DNA of 6,439 nucleotides, from the IMG/VR virus record IMGVR_UViG_2695420380_000009, one strand, 5' to 3'. The DNA comes from a virus. Its lineage: Duplodnaviria > Heunggongvirae > Uroviricota > Caudoviricetes. The translations under genes and the position numbers were made by a program. Positions 1 to 6,439 of the stretch are shown here, piece by piece (position 1 is the first letter of the stretch; each line of letters opens with the position of its first letter). The notes below the pieces were generated by a model. It made no database searches, was not told where the DNA came from, and saw nothing but the letters and a program-made list of their open reading frames with translations.

Positions 1-137
1 TAACAGGTGTCTGGAAATATAGGGGCAAATCCAGCGTTCATCAGCCCCCGCATTGCCGACAGGATCACAGACGGGGGGCGCAACTGGTTGTCGTTCAACT
101 GGCCCAGCTACCGTTCTTGTATCAGAGGTGTGGCTGC

Positions 138-1529
138 ATGACAACACCAGTCTGGCGTAATGATGACCTGGAAGGCGCTGTCATTGGCGCATTCTTTCTG
201 CGTGGGGCAGATCATGAAGTGATGGATATTCTGATCACACTACCGGCGGACATTTTTTCTGTACGAGCGTATCGGGATATCTACACAGGCATCTGCAGAC
301 AGGCCCGTGTTTCAGGAGTGATTGACCCCGTGCTGTTGTGTAATGAGATGCCGGAACTTGCCCCGGTGATTACTGATACCGGGCGTAAAACCTGGGTGAA
401 GTCTTCACTGGAGCACTATGTTGCAGCGTTGCGGCGCAATGCCGCACTGCGCGATGCAGAAAAAACACTGAATGAGGCGCTGCAGAAATTACGTGATGCG
501 CATACCTGTGAAGCAGCTGAAGATGCCCTGAAGGATGCGCAGAACATGATGGTCACACTGTCGACAGGAAAGGGCGTCATTCAGCCGGTACATATTGATG
601 ATGTGCTTCCGGAAGTGGTTGAGCGTGTTGAATGCCGGAATCAGGGGCTGGAGAAATCCAGGACGTTGATGACCGGTATTGATGAACTGGACGCAAAAAC
701 AGGCGGTATGGAGCCCGGAGACCTGGTATTCATTGCCGCCCGTCCTTCGATGGGGAAAACCGAACTTGCGCTGGACATCATCGACAAGGTGACTGAGCAG
801 GGGCATGGTGTGCTTCTGTTCACCATGGAGATGGCGAACATCCAGATTGGTGAACGTATGGTGTCTGCGGCTGGAGGGATGCCAGTATCACGCCTGAAAT
901 CTGTGGCTCACTTTGAAGATGAAGACTGGGCGCGTTTCTCACAAGGGGTGGGGCGGATGACCGGGCGCAATATCTGGATGGTGGACCAGGCGAACCTGAC
1001 CATTGATGAGATATGCGCAACAACGAAACACCATCTGATTAAACATCCGGAAACGGCGCTGGTGGTGGTTGATTATCTCGGGCTGATAAAAACCCGAACC
1101 ACGGGGCGTCATGACCTTGCCGTGGGTGAAATCTCAAAGGGGCTTAAAGGCCTGGCAAAATCCGGTGGTTTTCCGTTGATTGCGCTGAGCCAGCTCTCCC
1201 GCGGTGTGGAGTCCAGACCCAATAAACGTCCCATGAACTCAGACCTGAAAAATTCCGGAGAAATAGAGGCGGATGCAGACATCATTCTGATGCTTTACAG
1301 GGATGAAGTGTACAACCCGGATACACAGGCTACAGGCATAGCAGAAATTAATATCACGAAACAACGTAACGGTTCTCTGGGGACGATTTACCGGCGTTTT
1401 TATAACGGACATTTTCTGCCTGTGGACCAGGAAAGCGCACAGGTTCTTTCCACCCCAATGCGGCAGCCCCAGCCGCGCAGATACAGCAATACACGTACCG
1501 ACAGCAGTAAGATGGAGCGTTTCTTTTGA
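138..1529 (+). CDS. Replicative DNA helicase, DnaB family (phage P22 gp12-like). Start is ambiguous: ATG at 138 is preceded by AGAGG; the ORF track starts at an in-frame TTG at 117, and the frame stays open to the window edge.
   Basis: Long ORF of about 463-470 aa. Walker A-like motif ARPSMGKTE in a DnaB-like context (GIDELDAKTGGMEPGDLVFIAARPSMGKTELALDI), followed by LVVVDYLGLI and IALSQLSR motifs typical of the DnaB RecA-like C-terminal domain. Stop TGA at 1527-1529 overlaps the next ORF's start. Confidence 0.85.
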   Translation: MTTPVWRNDDLEGAVIGAFFLRGADHEVMDILITLPADIFSVRAYRDIYTGICRQARVSGVIDPVLLCNEMPELAPVITDTGRKTWVKSSLEHYVAALRRNAALRDAEKTLNEALQKLRDAHTCEAAEDALKDAQNMMVTLSTGKGVIQPVHIDDVLPEVVERVECRNQGLEKSRTLMTGIDELDAKTGGMEPGDLVFIAARPSMGKTELALDIIDKVTEQGHGVLLFTMEMANIQIGERMVSAAGGMPVSRLKSVAHFEDEDWARFSQGVGRMTGRNIWMVDQANLTIDEICATTKHHLIKHPETALVVVDYLGLIKTRTTGRHDLAVGEISKGLKGLAKSGGFPLIALSQLSRGVESRPNKRPMNSDLKNSGEIEADADIILMLYRDEVYNPDTQATGIAEINITKQRNGSLGTIYRRFYNGHFLPVDQESAQVLSTPMRQPQPRRYSNTRTDSSKMERFF

Positions 1530-1783
1530 ACAACCAGACAATGACTTTTACCCCTGAACAATTGCGTAAACACGCGCAGGAAATGCTGCGTCATGCTGAA
1601 CAACTCGAAAAAACGGGCATAACAAAAGACGCTATCCGTAAAGATATGGTACCCGCGCTTCGGGAACTGATGCAGGCGAAGCATCGCGCACAGAAAGCAG
1701 TAGATGAGCTGGTGGACTGTGTGGCAGAGCTGGAAACCAGAGTCGGAAAGTTTGAAAAACTGGTGCAGGAGGTGCTGCGCTGA
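1526..1783 (+). CDS. Small hypothetical protein (85 aa, predicted helical, charged), allele 1. Conserved position between the replication genes and rusA.
   Basis: ORF with a TTG start at 1526 preceded by GGAG at 1514-1517 (8-nt spacing); alternative ATG at 1541. The start overlaps the helicase stop and the stop overlaps the downstream ATG. Two further diverged copies in the window (2148-2405 and 2600-2759) differ mainly by transitions at synonymous sites, indicating a real coding sequence under purifying selection. Confidence 0.6.
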   Translation: MNNQTMTFTPEQLRKHAQEMLRHAEQLEKTGITKDAIRKDMVPALRELMQAKHRAQKAVDELVDCVAELETRVGKFEKLVQEVLR

Positions 1784-1904
1784 TGCGCCATGAGTTTATT
1801 TTACCTTATCCGCCGACGGTGAATACTTACTGGCGACGTCGTGACAACACATATTTTGTATCAAAAGCCGGTGAGCGTTATCGCCGGGATGTGGCGCTTA
1901 TTGT
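1783..1904 (+). pseudogene. rusA: Truncated rusA 5' fragment (first about 40 codons), ending at a single ambiguous base at 1905.
   Basis: Translation MRHEFILPYPPTVNTYWRRRDNTYFVSKAGERYRRDVALI matches the N-terminus of the full rusA at 2759-3133, then switches abruptly at 'n' 1905 into helicase 3' sequence. Confidence 0.6.
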
Positions 1905-1905
1905 N

Positions 1906-2151
1906 ATTCTGATGCTTTACAGGGATGAAGTGTACAACCCGGATACACAGGCTACAGGCATAGCAGAAATTAATATCACGAAACAACGTAACGGTTCTCT
2001 GGGGACGATTTACCGGCGTTTTTATAACGGACATTTTCTGCCTGTGGACCAGGAAAGCGCACAGGTTCTTTCCACCCCAATGCGGCAGCCCCAGCCGCGC
2101 AGATACAGCAATACACGTACCGACAGCAGTAAGATGGAGCGTTTCTTTTGA
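1906..2151 (+). pseudogene. Duplicate of the 3' end of the helicase gene (246 bp, apparently 100% identical to 1284-1529), fused in frame to the rusA fragment upstream.
   Basis: By-eye comparison shows 1906-2151 is identical to 1284-1529, including the stop. The ORF track gives a chimeric ORF 1783-2151 whose C-terminal 82 aa equal the helicase C-terminus. Confidence 0.6.
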
Positions 2152-2405
2152 ACAACCAGACAATGACTTTTACCTCTGAACAATTGCGTAAACACGCGCA
2201 GGAAATGTTGCGACAGGCGGAACAACTGGAAAAAACAGGTGTAACAAAAGATGCCATTCGTCGGGATATGGTGCCAGCGCTCAGGGAACTGATGCAGGCG
2301 AAACATCGCGCACAAAAAGCGGTGGATGAGCTCGTTGATTGTGTGGCAGAGCTGGAAACCAAAGTTGGAAAGTTTGAAAAAATGGTGCAGGAGGTGCTGC
2401 GCTGA
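2148..2405 (+). CDS. Small hypothetical protein (85 aa), allele 2, a diverged copy of 1526-1783.
   Basis: Same length and same overlapping stop/start architecture as allele 1. Six amino-acid differences (P10S, H23Q, I32V, K38R, R72K, L79M) plus multiple synonymous changes. Confidence 0.55.
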   Translation: MNNQTMTFTSEQLRKHAQEMLRQAEQLEKTGVTKDAIRRDMVPALRELMQAKHRAQKAVDELVDCVAELETKVGKFEKMVQEVLR

Positions 2406-2598
2406 TGCGCCATGAGTTTATTTTACCTTATCCGCCGACGGTGAATACTTACTGGCGACGTCGTGACAACACATATTTTGTATCAAAAGCCGGTGAGCGT
2501 TATCGCCGGGATGTGGCGCTTATTGTCCGTCAGCAGCGACTGAAATTAAGCCTGTCCGGAAGACTGGCGATAAAGATTATTGCAGAGCCACCGGATAA
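2405..2598 (+). pseudogene. rusA: Truncated rusA 5' fragment, copy 2 (about 64 codons), ending at a single ambiguous base at 2599.
   Basis: Translation MRHEFILPYPPTVNTYWRRRDNTYFVSKAGERYRRDVALIVRQQRLKLSLSGRLAIKIIAEPPD matches the rusA N-terminus, then the sequence jumps at 'n' 2599 into the middle of the small ORF, out of frame. Confidence 0.6.
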
Positions 2599-2599
2599 N

Positions 2600-2759
2600 A
2601 AAAGATGCCATTCGTCGGGATATGGTGCCAGCGCTCAGGGAACTGATGCAGGCGAAACATCGCGCACAAAAAGCGGTGGATGAGCTCGTTGATTGTGTGG
2701 CAGAGCTGGAAACCAAAGTTGGAAAGTTTGAAAAACTGGTGCAGGAGGTGCTGCGCTGA
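2600..2759 (+). pseudogene. 3' fragment of the small hypothetical ORF (copy 3, encoding the final 53 codons from KDAIRRDMVPALRELMQ to EVLR).
   Basis: Near-identical to the 3' part of allele 2 (one visible difference, aaaaactggtg versus aaaaaatggtg). It lacks a 5' end and start codon. Confidence 0.5.
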
Positions 2760-3133
2760 TGCGCCATGAGTTTATTTTACCTTATCCGCCGACGGTGAAT
2801 ACTTACTGGCGACGTCGTGGCAGCACATATTTTGTATCAAAAGTTGGTGAGCGTTATCGCCGTGATGTGACGCTAATTGTTCGCCAGCAGCGGCTGAAAT
2901 TAAACCTGTCCGGAAGGCTGGCGATAAAGATTATTGCAGAGCCACCGGATAAGCGCCGTCGTGACCTGGACAATATCCTGAAAGCACCACTGGATGCACT
3001 GACACATGCGGGAGTGTTAATGGACGATGAGCAGTTTGATGAAATCAATATCGTTCGTGGTCAGCCAGTATCTGGTGGACGTCTGGGGGTGAAGATTTAC
3101 CCCATAATGCATGAAGAGCAGGTCAAAAAATGA
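2759..3133 (+). CDS. rusA: Crossover junction endodeoxyribonuclease RusA (Holliday junction resolvase), the full-length copy of 124 aa.
   Basis: ATG at 2759 preceded by AGGAGG at 2743-2748. The protein shows family features as I recall them for E. coli RusA: N-terminal PYPPTVNTYW-type motif and the acidic catalytic region KRRRDLDNILKAPLDALTHAGVLMDDEQ. Start overlaps the upstream stop and the stop overlaps the Q start (ATGA). Confidence 0.85.
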   Translation: MRHEFILPYPPTVNTYWRRRGSTYFVSKVGERYRRDVTLIVRQQRLKLNLSGRLAIKIIAEPPDKRRRDLDNILKAPLDALTHAGVLMDDEQFDEINIVRGQPVSGGRLGVKIYPIMHEEQVKK

Positions 3134-4343
3134 AACTGGAAGATTTACCGAAATACTACTCCCCAAAATCCCCTTGCCTGACCGATGCATCGGNNNNNNN
3201 NNNNNNNNNNNNNNNNNNNNNNNNNNNNNNNNNNNNNNNNNNNNNNNNNNNNNNNNCCGATGCATCGGCCTCAACGTCAAAAGATGCGCTGAGTATCACT
3301 GATGTGATGGCCGCGCAGGGCATGACACAGAATCGGGCTGAGATGGGGTTTTCTGCGTTCCTGGGGAAAATGGGCATCAGTATGAATGACAGAGAGCGGG
3401 CAACAGAATTGCTGACAGAATATGCACTCAGTCNNNNNNNNNNNNNNNNNNNNNNNNNNNNNNNNNNNNNNNNNNNNNNNNNNNNNNNNNNNNNNNNNNN
3501 NNNNNNNNNNNNNNNNNNNNNNNNNNNNNNNNNNNNNNNNNNNNNNNNNNNNNNNNNNNNNNNNNNNNNNNNNNNNNNNNNNNNNNNNNNNNNNNNNNGT
3601 GTGATCGCGTGGCGGCGTTAAGAAAACTCCCGGCAGAAATAAAACCGGCAGTGATGCGTATTATGGCTTCGTATGCGTTTGAAGATTATGCCCGTAGCGC
3701 GGCGAGCAAAAAACAGTGCCCCTGCTGTCACGGAAAAAAATTTATTGAAAGCGAGGTTTTTACAAACAAGANNNNNNNNNNNCCGGCAGAAATAAAACCG
3801 GTAGTGATGCGCATTATGGCTTCGTACGCTTTTGAGGATTATGCCCGCAGCGCAGCGAGTAAAAAGCAGTGCCCTTGTTGCTATGGGGAAAAATTTATTG
3901 AAAGCGTAGTTTTTACAAACAAGGTCCAGTATCCGGATGGTAAGCCGCCGGTATGGGCAAAGTGTACGAAAGGTGTGTATCCGTCTTACTGGGAAGAATG
4001 GAAAAAAGTCAGGGAGGTGGTAAAAGTTGCCTGTCCGGAGTGTGGCGGAAAGGGTGAGGTTTCCACCGCCTGTAAGGATTGCCGTGGGCGTGGTGTCGCC
4101 ATTCATCGTGAAGAGTCGGTAAAACGTGGTATGCCTGTTATCAGAGACTGCCAGCGTTGTGGTGGTCGTGGCTATGAAAGACTACCATCAACGGAGGCAT
4201 TTAATGCTATATGCGAGGTGACAAACCAGATAACACGCGCGTCATGGGAAAAAACAGTTAAGAAATTTTATGATGCGCTGGTGACCCGGTTTGATATTGA
4301 AGAAGCATGGGCTGAGCGGCAGTTAAAAAAGGTAACTAGGTAA
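3130..4343 (+). CDS. Q: Late-gene antitermination protein Q, lambda Q family. As presented it is mosaic and not one intact ORF: the N-terminal part (3130-3433) and C-terminal part (3599-4343) are in different frames across a 165-N block.
   Basis: The N-terminal segment MKLEDLPKYYSPKSP...TDVMAAQGMTQNRAEMGFSAFLGK and the C-terminal tail ...WEKTVKKFYDALV...KKVTR resemble lambda Q as recalled from memory. Central CxxC zinc-binding motifs are present. The gene lies just upstream of a PR'-like promoter and terminator, the canonical Q position. Confidence 0.75.
3630..3923 (+). repeat. Diverged tandem duplication inside Q: two 141-bp copies (3630-3770 and 3783-3923) separated by 'a' plus 11 N, period 153 bp, in frame.
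   Basis: Direct alignment by eye shows about 16 mismatches in 141 bp, 14 of them transitions. Both copies encode PAEIKP[A/V]VMRIMASYAFEDYARSAASKKQCPCC[H/Y]G[K/E]KFIES[E/V]VFTNK. Confidence 0.7.
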
Positions 4344-4449: not shown

Positions 4450-5043
4450 NNNNNNNNNNNNNNNNNNNNNNNNNNNNNNNNNNNNNNNNNNNNNNNNNNN
4501 NNNNNNNNNNNNNNNNNNNNNNNNNNNNNNNNNNNNNNNNNNNNNNNNNNNNNNNNNNNNNNNNNNNNNNNNNNNNNNNNNNNNNNNNNNNNNNNNNNNN
4601 NNNNNNNNNNNNNNNNNNNNNNNNNNNNNNNNNNNNNNNNNNNNNNNNNNNNNNNNNNNNNNNNNNNNNNNNNNNNNNNNNNNNNNNNNNNNNNNNNNNN
4701 NNNNNNNNNNNNNNNNNNNNNNNNNNNNNNNNNNNNNNNNNNNNNNNNNNNNNNNNNNNNNNNNNNNNNNNNNNNNNNNNNNNNNNNNNNNNNNNNNNNN
4801 NNNNNNNNNNNNNNNNNNNNNNNNNNNNNNNNNNNNNNNNNNNNNNNNNNNNNNNNNNNNNNNNNNNNNNNNNNNNNNNNNNNNNNNNNNNNNNNNNNNN
4901 NNNNNNNNNNNNNNNNNNNNNNNNNNNNNNNNNNNNNNNNNNNNNNNNNNNNNNNNNNNNNNNNNNNNNNNNNNNNNNNNNNNNNNNNNNNNNNNNNNNN
5001 NNNNNNNNNNATGCGTTGGGTTCACAAGCAAACCTCAGGCCCA

Positions 5044-5094: not shown

Positions 5095-6288
5095 ATGCTT
5101 AATACTGTAAAAATATCCAGTTGTGAGTTAATCAACGCCGACTGCCTGGAATTTATCCGGTCGTTACCCGAAAATTCTGTTGACCTGATAGTCACGGACC
5201 CGCCGTACTTTAAAGTGAAGCCTGAGGGCTGGGATAACCAGTGGAAGGGCGACGATGATTACCTGAAGTGGCTGGACCAGTGTCTGGCGCAGTTCTGGCG
5301 GGTGCTGAAACCTGCCGGAAGTCTTTACCTGTTCTGTGGTCATCGCCTGGCATCTGATATCGAAATCATGATGCGTGAACGCTTCAGTGTGCTGAACCAT
5401 ATTATCTGGGCGAAGCCGTCCGGACGCTGGAACGGNNNNNNNNNNNNNNNNNNNNNNNNNNNNNNNNNNNNNNNNNNNNNNNNNNNNNNNNNNNNNNNNN
5501 NNNNNNNNNNNNNNNNNNNNCGGGCGTATTTCCCCGCCACAGAGCGCATTCTGTTCGCGGAACATTATCAGGGGCCGTATCGTCCGAAAGATGCCGGGTA
5601 TNNNNNNNNNNNNNNNNNNNNNNNNNNNNNNNNNNNNNNNNNNNNNNNNNNNNNNNNNNNNNNNNNNNNNNNNNNNNNNNNNNNNNNNNNNNNNNNNNNN
5701 NNNNNNNNNNNNNNNNNNNNNNNNNNNNNNNNNNNNNNNNNNNNNNNNNNNNNNNNNNNNNNNNNNNNNNNNNNNNNNNNNNNNNNNNNNNNNNNNNNNN
5801 NNNNNNNNNNNNNNNNNNNNNNNNNNNNNNNNNNNNNNNNNNNNNNNNNNNNNNNNNNNNNNNNNNNNNNNNNNNNNNNNNNNNNNNNNNNNNNNNNNNN
5901 NNNNNNNNNNNNNNNNNNNNNNNNNNNNNNNNNNNNNNNNNNNNNNNNNNNNNNNNNNNNNNNNNNNNNNNNNNNNNNNNNNNNNNNNNNNNNNNNNNNN
6001 NNNNNNNNNNNGACGGTGCAGGTGCCGTATACCGATGTGTGGACGCATAAACCGGTGCAGTTCTATCCCGGGAAACATCCGTGCGAAAAACCGGCAGAAA
6101 TGCTGCAGCAGATAATCAGCGCTAGCAGTCGTCCGGGTGACCTGATTGCAGATTTTTTCATGGGGTTGGGTTCGACAGTGAAAGCGGCACTGGCGCTCGG
6201 GCGTCGTGCAATTGGCGTTGAGCTGGAGACTGAACGTTTTGAGCAGACGGTTCGGGAAGTACAGGATTTAGTCAGCCAGAACGGATGA
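5095..6288 (+). CDS. DNA methyltransferase, beta-class amino-MTase (N6-adenine or N4-cytosine; PF01555-like). The central region is N-masked (5436-5520 and 5602-6011).
   Basis: N-terminal catalytic motif IV DLIVTDPPY (a DPPY tetrapeptide) and C-terminal AdoMet-binding motif I region HPCEKPAEMLQQIISASSRPGDLIADFFMGLGSTVKAALALGRRAIGVE. Motif IV preceding motif I is the beta-class order. The frame is preserved across both masked blocks (visible segments at 5095-5435, 5521-5601 and 6012-6288 share one frame). Confidence 0.8.
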   Translation: MLNTVKISSCELINADCLEFIRSLPENSVDLIVTDPPYFKVKPEGWDNQWKGDDDYLKWLDQCLAQFWRVLKPAGSLYLFCGHRLASDIEIMMRERFSVLNHIIWAKPSGRWNXXXXXXXXXXXXXXXXXXXXXXXXXXXXXRAYFPATERILFAEHYQGPYRPKDAGYXXXXXXXXXXXXXXXXXXXXXXXXXXXXXXXXXXXXXXXXXXXXXXXXXXXXXXXXXXXXXXXXXXXXXXXXXXXXXXXXXXXXXXXXXXXXXXXXXXXXXXXXXXXXXXXXXXXXXXXXXXXXXXXXXXXXXXXXXTVQVPYTDVWTHKPVQFYPGKHPCEKPAEMLQQIISASSRPGDLIADFFMGLGSTVKAALALGRRAIGVELETERFEQTVREVQDLVSQNG

Positions 6289-6328: not shown

Positions 6329-6401
6329 GGCCCTTTAGCTCAGTGGTGAGAGCGAGCGACTCATAATCGCCAGGTCGCTGGTTCAAGTCCAGCAAGGGTG
6401 A
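6329..6401 (+). tRNA. ileZ: tRNA with anticodon CAU, closely resembling E. coli tRNA-Ile2 (ileX/ileY type, the lysidine-modified AUA reader); ileZ-like phage-borne tRNA. No encoded CCA.
   Basis: Manual cloverleaf: acceptor GGCCCTT, D-arm GCTC-AGTGGTGA-GAGC, anticodon arm AGCGA-CTCATAA-TCGCC, variable loop AGGTC, T-arm GCTGG-TTCAAGT-CCAGC, 3' acceptor AAGGGTG, discriminator A. The T-arm is identical and the D-arm nearly identical to E. coli ileX as I recall it. Irregularities: G1-G72 mismatch, G2-U71 wobble, A27-C43 mismatch. Confidence 0.7.
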
Positions 6402-6439
6402 AGTAGTCAACAAAAACTGGCCACCGAGTTAGAGTTTTT

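Follow-up and report, generated by a model that had tools for sequence, protein, structure and literature searches.

Placement of 'duplicated overlapping contigs' at adjacent locations through mate-pair links is a known class of assembly error (Kelley & Salzberg 2010, PMC2864568). In this class, diverged versions of a sequence are assembled separately, linked by read pairs to one neighbourhood and set adjoining, which gives an illusory duplication with an overlap at the contig ends beside a gap. The staggered helicase-orf85-rusA duplications in the 6439-bp stretch of DNA analysed here (the window) resemble this class in both respects, and judging from the sequence they are almost certainly an assembly artefact, in which overlapping contig ends from two prophage remnants were set in series and left unmerged. 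Unlike the diploid haplotypes of the published work, the two versions here would come from prophage remnants that are separated by 1.6 Mb on the chromosome of a haploid bacterium, and the contigs themselves switch between the copies.

The genes involved are those of the lambdoid prophage replication / nin module, which includes a DnaB-like helicase, a small ORF, the RusA resolvase, the Q antiterminator, a DNA methylase and a tRNA. With the repeats collapsed, the region agrees in gene order and content with the nin module of closed E. coli and S. sonnei prophages, phiP27 or Stx-phage relatives.

Layout of the scaffold

The window corresponds base for base to the complete scaffold CXCT01000198.1 (GCA_001249045.1, a short-read draft of Shigella sonnei), whose deposited proteins carry that species name. 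Splitting at gap characters divides the scaffold at eight N runs into nine contigs. The Pfam matches are strong for the helicase (DnaB_C, E-value 7.8e-73), rusA (RusA, 7.4e-16) and Q (Antiterm, 1.1e-35), and no Pfam family scored above its cut-off for orf85. The features of the first three contigs are:

1–1904, plus strand: contig 1 (split at N run), ending inside rusA
1–33, plus strand: insertion-sequence end, in contig 1
138–1529, plus strand: ORF for the DnaB-like helicase (Pfam DnaB_C), with its stop at 1529
1526–1783, plus strand: ORF, orf85 copy 1 (allele 1)
1783–1904, plus strand: rusA 5' end, first 122 nt (40 codons), truncated by the end of contig 1
1905: single n between contigs 1 and 2, a minimal-length scaffold gap; 621-bp overlap on single-copy relatives
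1906–2598, plus strand: contig 2, 693 bp (split at N runs)
1906–2151, plus strand: helicase 3' copy, 246 bp, identical to 1284–1529
2148–2405, plus strand: ORF, orf85 copy 2 (allele 2)
2405–2598, plus strand: rusA 5' fragment, 194 nt (64 codons), truncated by the end of contig 2
2599: single n between contigs 2 and 3, a minimal-length scaffold gap; the true relation appears to be a 353-bp overlap
2600–3193, plus strand: contig 3, 594 bp (split at N runs)
2600–2759, plus strand: orf85 3' fragment, in contig 3
2759–3133, plus strand: complete rusA, 124 aa (Pfam RusA)
3130 onwards, plus strand: start of the Q antiterminator gene, in contig 3

An earlier note, made from the sequence alone, had described this succession of helicase 3', orf85 and rusA 5' copies, broken by an n at 1905 and at 2599 and closed by a full rusA, and every element lies where it had placed it. 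Its description of the two helicase 3' copies as identical also holds over all 246 bp. It had further described the orf85 and rusA copies as diverged alleles that differ mostly by transitions at synonymous positions; that the changes are mostly synonymous is true of orf85 and fails for rusA. The first two units differ at 29 positions, all of them in orf85 (19 transitions, 21 third-codon positions, 6 amino-acid changes), and the third orf85 fragment is a single base apart from copy 2 (2382/2736). Between the first and second rusA 5' copies there is no difference; only the third rusA differs, at 12 positions, of which 6 are non-synonymous and lead to 5 amino-acid changes.

Overlapping contig ends and single-copy relatives

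The suffix of contig 1 (1284–1904) recurs as the prefix of contig 2 over 621 bp with 95.3% identity (29 differences), and the suffix of contig 2 (2246–2598) recurs as the prefix of contig 3 (2600–2952) over 353 bp with 96.3% identity (13 differences). Both repeats are far above chance expectation, and both are strict suffix/prefix (dovetail) overlaps of adjacent contigs which stop exactly at the n. The lone N's of four related draft loci (L006, L013, L031 and L037) showed no dovetail overlap, so that a single N alone is not diagnostic. Contig 1 ends one base short of a variable site, at equivalent position 1905, in a stretch where such sites are dense (1887, 1894, 1899, 1905 and 1908), and the position of this end could easily be due to chance. 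We also considered whether the start of contig 2 (equivalent 1284) reflects the IS21 junction that truncates one of the two prophage copies, copy A, in closed S. sonnei genomes, and rejected this, as homology to that copy begins at 1405, 121 bp away.

Without the overlaps, positions 1–3193 amount to 2217 bp, the same as the corresponding span on a gap-free S. sonnei contig (L064) with one helicase-orf85-rusA unit, from which contig 3 differs by one mismatch in 594. Similarly, a query of positions 1100–3193 (2094 bp) matches a closed chromosome in three pieces that together cover 1118 bp there, which is exactly 2094 less 622 and 354. A single unit is present in all 72 related loci that we fetched (41 from the viral collection, 29 more from S. 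sonnei and relatives, on closed chromosomes or draft contigs, and 2 from closed E. coli genomes), and all the single-copy comparators are strains other than the source isolate. None of the 72 carries the junction at 1905 or at 2599. When junction-spanning queries were compared with 5426 closed E. coli genomes, neither junction was contiguous among the matches listed, which were all in two pieces, with the halves in permuted order and 621 and 357 bp apart. A 45-mer of allele 2 had no match in species-representative genome contigs, and neither did the junction pattern, in a scan that may not match N in the target. In the window itself neither junction is gap-free sequence, an n standing at each.

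The earlier note had confined the pattern to 1284–3133. It is present there and also continues downstream, at 3194–3256 and 3772–3782, where the scaffold runs through the Q gene:

3194–3256: 63-N gap, its edges formed by a common 12-bp palindrome, CCGATGCATCGG (3182–3193 and 3257–3268)
3434–3598: 165-N gap within the Q gene; flanking contigs 1 bp apart on relatives
3599–3924, plus strand: apparent third false duplication, in the Q gene; contig 5 ends in a stretch (3630–3771) that recurs at the head of contig 6 (3783–3924)

On relatives the contigs flanking the 63-N gap overlap by 12 bp (100%), and the gap is apparently spurious. The Q-gene repeat extends over 142 bp with 86.6% identity, across an 11-N gap (3772–3782), and contig 5 is only 87–88% identical to every Q allele fetched. 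In the scaffold the Q antiterminator gene is swollen from ~822 bp to 1214 bp. N-run length rises with the true gap size obtained from L064 (Spearman 0.97, p = 6.5e-5), with a floor at 1 for the two most negative true gaps; the runs are longer than the true gaps by 66–179 bp.

Two prophage remnants and possible routes to the junctions

S. sonnei has at least two related lambdoid prophage remnants with this module, copies A and B. In the closed S. sonnei chromosome CP104423.1, copy A is found near 0.92 Mb (region 916497–928754) and copy B near 2.53 Mb (region 2527238–2539495), with 1.6 Mb between them, and the closed genome CP045526.1 likewise has both. Copy A consists of IS21, a 125-bp helicase remnant, orf85 allele 1 and rusA; copy B of an insertion-sequence end, the full helicase, orf85 allele 2 and rusA. 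They are ~95% identical across ~600 bp and share exact common stretches of 53, 83 and 80 bp. Contigs 1–3 are near-exact mosaics of the two, with one mismatch overall. Contig 1 matches copy B (L053, S. sonnei Ss046) over 1–1552 and copy A (L054) over 1500–1904, and contig 2 matches copy B over 1906–2465 and copy A over 2383–2598, all with 0 mismatches; contig 3 matches copy B over 2600–2917 with 1 mismatch and copy A over 2918–3193 with 0. Thus each of the three contigs begins as B-type and switches to A-type, each within a different exact common stretch. Lambdoid prophages recombine naturally, and mosaic contigs are by themselves no proof of chimerism.

Taken together, the dovetails, the exact collapse onto single-copy relatives and the A/B mosaicism point to an assembly artefact. 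For the source isolate this verdict draws on the geometry of the junctions and on comparison with other strains. The earlier note had likewise favoured an assembler or scaffolder that joined pieces of two or three related lambdoid prophages, and these observations bear it out. Where it spoke of an assembler collapsing near-identical repeats, the artefact stands and the mechanism would be the opposite one, a false expansion of contig ends that differ by 4–5%. We suggest that the software left the contig ends unmerged because of the 29 and 13 mismatches in the overlaps, while read pairs would still have fixed the order of the contigs, which would then have been written in series with the smallest gap, a single n. 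Such serial placement would account for the two surplus partial copies of the stretch from the helicase end through orf85 into the start of rusA. The software step might be scaffolding with a gap size estimated as negative, or gap filling in which both edges were extended into a gap whose size had been set too high, until no N's were left. In SSPACE and GapFiller output, a single n would denote an exhausted or negative gap.

GapFiller grows both edges of a gap base by base, with a majority vote at allelic differences, and does not close the gap unless its size falls within 50 nt of the estimate (PMC3446322). The algorithms have been called greedy, and capable of false joins, by the authors themselves (PMC3446322, PMC5320598). 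Under such rules one would expect edges that overlap but stay unmerged, with a minimal gap left over. The Sanger prokaryote assembly pipeline runs Velvet, SSPACE scaffolding and then GapFiller, and has been used on 299 S. sonnei isolates, which gave about 405 contigs apiece (PMC5320598). This pipeline may have made the CXCT01 record; neither CXCT01 nor GCA_001249045 was found by full-text search or in the part searched of that paper's supplement.

The same arrangement could be an artefact reached by another route, in which contigs from different prophages were ordered on a reference genome and concatenated with N's. The contig order is indeed colinear with single-copy relatives and the N lengths do follow reference-derived gaps; however, gap sizes taken from a reference should fit closely, and those of the scaffold are too long by the margins given above. 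Furthermore, gaps of positive size stand between overlapping or abutting contigs (63 N for −12 bp, 165 N for +1 bp), which resembles noisy insert-size estimates, and the scaffold includes tiny contigs of 81–177 bp, which are typical of read-pair scaffolding. We therefore regard ordering on a reference as unlikely. Far less probable still is a genuine nested tandem partial triplication, with periods of 622 and 354 bp, formed by unequal recombination between co-resident remnants, the n's being ambiguous bases. Copies A and B do co-reside in S. sonnei with exact common stretches long enough for homologous recombination, and the lone N's without overlap in other draft loci indicate that a single N can be a mere ambiguous base. 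Against this, two random N's would fall on both junctions with a chance of ~6e-7, each duplication is strictly an overlap of contig ends, and the junctions are contiguous neither in any related locus nor among the matches listed from closed E. coli genomes. Three more gaps of the scaffold are contradicted by relatives, including the 63 N's at a real 12-bp overlap, and with a genuine triplication the isolate would carry two truncated copies of rusA, besides a RusA::DnaB fusion ORF that has no plausible function. The genuine recombination scar that the earlier note had kept as its alternative thus found no support in the related loci or closed genomes examined.

Consequences for annotation

As contig-end overlaps with only a single unit in relatives, the intermediate copies would not be genes, as the earlier note had also advised, and these copies and the three further junctions of the Q gene should not be annotated. 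Left in place, the probable artefact yields spurious or truncated gene calls, namely a RusA-DnaB fusion, a rusA fragment, a second orf85 and an orf85 fragment. Two of these span an n (identified from the ORF list and Pfam):

1783–2151, plus strand: apparently artefactual ORF that joins the RusA N-terminus to the C-terminal end of DnaB
2405–2683, plus strand: apparently artefactual rusA fragment, 92 aa

Neither had a protein of exact sequence in the collection searched. The 37-aa orf85 fragment, in contrast, is an exact match to a deposited protein, CSQ35689.1, 'putative bacteriophage protein [Shigella sonnei]'.

Such junctions in scaffolded short-read drafts of genomes in which prophages and insertion sequences abound will mislead scans for gene fusions, recombination scars or duplications. 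They can be filtered out cheaply by checking the sequence that precedes each N run for a suffix/prefix match with the sequence that follows. For data quality the consequences are concrete, if modest. The biological significance is close to nil: once the apparently false copies are taken out, no difference from the nin module is left, and what remains is ordinary biology.

Overlapping contig ends

The window is identical in sequence to the whole record CXCT01000198.1 (6439 bp, assembly GCA_001249045.1) so that it represents a single small scaffold from a fragmented draft genome; its complete RusA is CSQ35695.1, and the source databases name the organism Shigella sonnei. Eight N runs give nine called-base stretches, here contigs 1-9. 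The earlier note had described repeated copies of the helicase 3' end, orf85 and the rusA 5' end, and both the duplicated segments and their layout proved correct to the single base:

ending at 1529: helicase (Pfam DnaB_C)
1526-1783: orf85 copy 1
ending at 1904: rusA 5' fragment, 122 nt
1906-2151: copy of the helicase 3' end, 246 bp
2148-2405: orf85 copy 2
ending at 2598: rusA 5' fragment, 194 nt
2600-2759: orf85 3' fragment, the final 160 nt
2759-3133: complete rusA (Pfam RusA)

The tail of contig 1 (1284-1904) aligns without gaps to the head of contig 2 (1906-2526) over 621 bases with 29 differences, all confined to orf85, and the tail of contig 2 (2246-2598) matches the head of contig 3 (2600-2952) over 353 bases with 13 differences. 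A suffix/prefix match scan over every gap of the window recovers both overlaps, so each duplication is a dovetail between adjacent contigs and ends precisely at the gap character. Two further overlaps came from the same scan: a perfect one of 12 bp between the contigs flanking the 63-N gap, and one of 142 bp (86.6% identity) across the 11-N gap. Were the two single N's unrelated to the repeats, the chance of both landing on the junction positions would be ~6e-7. The orf85 copies differ by 19 transitions and 10 transversions, 21 of them at third codon positions, and 6 amino acids change. The rusA 5' fragments match each other exactly and differ from the complete rusA at 12 sites (6/12 non-synonymous, 5 amino-acid changes).

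A single module in relatives and a mosaic of two prophage copies

Used as a query, 1100-3193 (2094 bp) aligned in three pieces to just 1118 bp of the closed genome NZ_CP065613.1, which equals 2094-622-354, and the annotation there lists the helicase, a 258-bp ORF, a 375-bp rusA and an antiterminator gene once each. In a second closed genome the module genes are likewise single, with a DUF968 gene between orf85 and rusA. We compared 41 viral-collection loci sharing a 45-mer of orf85 allele 2 and 29 more from S. sonnei and its relatives, taken from closed chromosomes as well as draft contigs, and in every related locus fetched contigs 1-3 fall on overlapping coordinates of one unit. The closest match is a gap-free S. 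sonnei contig, L064 (GCA_039760955.1, 6542 bp), to which contigs 7 and 8 are identical and from which contig 3 differs at 1/594 bases; with the repeated overlaps removed, 1-3193 collapses to 2217 bp, exactly its span on L064. For each single-n junction, a 161-bp query with the junction at its centre was also searched against 5426 closed E. coli genomes. Among the matches listed none was contiguous; all were in two pieces, with the order of the halves permuted and spacings of 621 and 357 bp, the result that a single unit would give.

Two related lambdoid prophage remnants occur in closed S. sonnei chromosomes. Copy B (CP104423.1 at 0.92 Mb; Ss046, CP000038.1) has an IS end, a full helicase, orf85 allele 2, a 123-aa RusA and a 128-aa Q, and copy A (CP104423.1 at 2.53 Mb) has IS21, a 125-bp helicase remnant, orf85 allele 1, a 124-aa RusA and a 284-aa Q; CP045526.1 also carries both.

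Best match of window segments to copies A and B
1-1552: B, 0 mismatches
1500-1904: A, 0 mismatches
1906-2465: B, 0 mismatches
2383-2598: A, 0 mismatches
2600-2917: B, 1 mismatch
2918-3193: A, 0 mismatches

Base by base, the best matches alternate, and thus contigs 1-3 all begin on B and finish on A. The switches lie inside the three longest stretches identical between A and B (53, 83 and 80 bp), as is expected from k-mer-based assembly or greedy edge extension over a two-copy repeat of ~95% identity. Natural recombination is able to yield one B-to-A mosaic, but it would not account for three in series, each closing at a gap. A real triplication of the helicase 3' end, orf85 and the rusA 5' end in the isolate is, in our judgement, very improbable. 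The assembler or scaffolder artefact favoured by the earlier note is supported as regards stitching; what happened is not a collapse of repeats but a false expansion from unmerged overlaps.

The complete rusA is itself an exact mosaic, of copy-B type in its 5' part to 2917 and copy-A type in its 3' part. Its exact 124-aa product is found on 100 contigs, all ≤6.5 kb, and the names on record are S. sonnei throughout; each orf85 allele, unlike this mosaic RusA, occurs in ~100 collection blocks with a longest contig of more than 1 Mb. The mosaic gene belongs either to a recombinant prophage particular to one lineage, of which the gap-free contigs L064 and L066-L068 would be cases, or to a chimera that assembly has produced repeatedly.

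Gap lengths and a likely software route

All nine contigs were placed on L064, and the true gaps were compared with the scaffold N runs.

N runs of the window and true gaps on L064
Contigs 1 to 2: 1905, 1 N; -621 bp
Contigs 2 to 3: 2599, 1 N; -353 bp
Contigs 3 to 4: 3194-3256, 63 N; -12 bp
Contigs 4 to 5: 3434-3598, 165 N; +1 bp
Contigs 5 to 6: 3772-3782, 11 N; -142 bp
Contigs 6 to 7: 4450-5010, 561 N; +382 bp
Contigs 7 to 8: 5436-5520, 85 N; +19 bp
Contigs 8 to 9: 5602-6011, 410 N; +341 bp

N-run length follows the true gap (rank correlation 0.97, p = 6.5e-5), and the runs behave as noisy gap estimates biased upward by 66-179 bp, with a floor at 1. On this reading, the single n's at 1905 and 2599 are gap estimates at their floor, and the scaffolding software effectively had evidence that contigs 1 and 2, and 2 and 3, overlap. 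In SSPACE and GapFiller usage a lone n stands for a negative or exhausted gap.

The repeat geometry, relatives, mosaics and gap lengths are observed, and the software route behind them is inferred. The error itself is of a known class, in which diverged versions of a region are assembled apart, linked by mate pairs to one neighbourhood and put side by side, "duplicated overlapping contigs" being one of two signatures of such adjacent-placement errors (PMC2864568). GapFiller lengthens the two edges of a gap by single bases, settling allelic differences by majority vote, and closes the gap only when the extensions share an overlap of 10 nt or more and the inserted sequence deviates from the estimated size by no more than 50 nt (PMC3446322). 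Where a gap is over-estimated, the two edges could extend beyond each other and remain unmerged, and the size rule accords with the perfect 12-bp overlap left unclosed over 63 N's. For 299 S. sonnei isolates the Sanger pipeline ran Velvet, then SSPACE, then 120 GapFiller iterations, and its authors describe SSPACE and GapFiller as greedy and liable to join sequences falsely (PMC5320598); CXCT01000198.1 may be a product of this pipeline.

Gene calls and neighbouring elements

Further features of the window are:

3130-4343: Q antiterminator gene (Pfam Antiterm and a DnaJ-type zinc-finger region), with the same artefact at three junctions
5095-6288: N6/N4 DNA methyltransferase gene, interrupted by two N gaps, with Pfam matches at both ends
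6329-6401: tRNA with a CAT anticodon, called tRNA-Met by ARAGORN

L064 and its relatives have an intact methyltransferase gene (352 aa), which is missing from copy A in the fetched closed S. sonnei chromosomes. In closed genomes the homologous tRNA is annotated as tRNA-Ile and is followed by two tRNA-Arg genes, an arrangement typical of Stx-type lambdoid prophages; in the window its 3' acceptor end is supplanted by a terminal repeat that starts where homology to relatives ends, a few bases within the tRNA 3' end. Both scaffold ends (1-33 and 6399-6439) resemble ends of repeated mobile elements, presumably IS2-like and IS911-like: in related loci the initial 33-34 nt recur as an insertion-sequence end adjoining an rve transposase gene, and the final 41 nt correspond to a repeated sequence in three other loci. 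The helicase gene is a repeated insertion-sequence target in relatives, being split by IS600 in NZ_CP065613.1 (L001 3772-6430) and reduced by IS21 to its last 125 bp in closed S. sonnei copy A (L054 3697-5666). The 85-aa orf85 has a TTG start overlapping the helicase stop; it matched no Pfam family above cut-off, its sole match being a sub-threshold coiled-coil model, and it is very common between helicase and rusA genes, its two alleles occurring in 2758 and 3567 contig-collection blocks.

The Q gene measures 1214 bp, compared with ~822 bp in a closed relative, because of its three bad junctions. The contigs beside its 63-N gap truly overlap by the 12-bp palindrome CCGATGCATCGG, relatives have 1 bp in place of its 165 N's, and its 11-N gap conceals the 142-bp overlap. 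The 173-bp contig at 3599-3771 is just 87-88% identical to all Q alleles among the 72 loci fetched and is probably a piece of another prophage in this genome that scaffolding put into the wrong copy.

Spurious or truncated calls on the record include a second orf85, a 92-aa piece of rusA, a 122-aa fusion of the RusA N-terminus and the DnaB C-terminal end, and a 37-aa orf85 fragment that exactly matches the deposited protein CSQ35689.1. The staggered duplication is almost certainly no biological feature, and the prophage module beneath it is an ordinary one.
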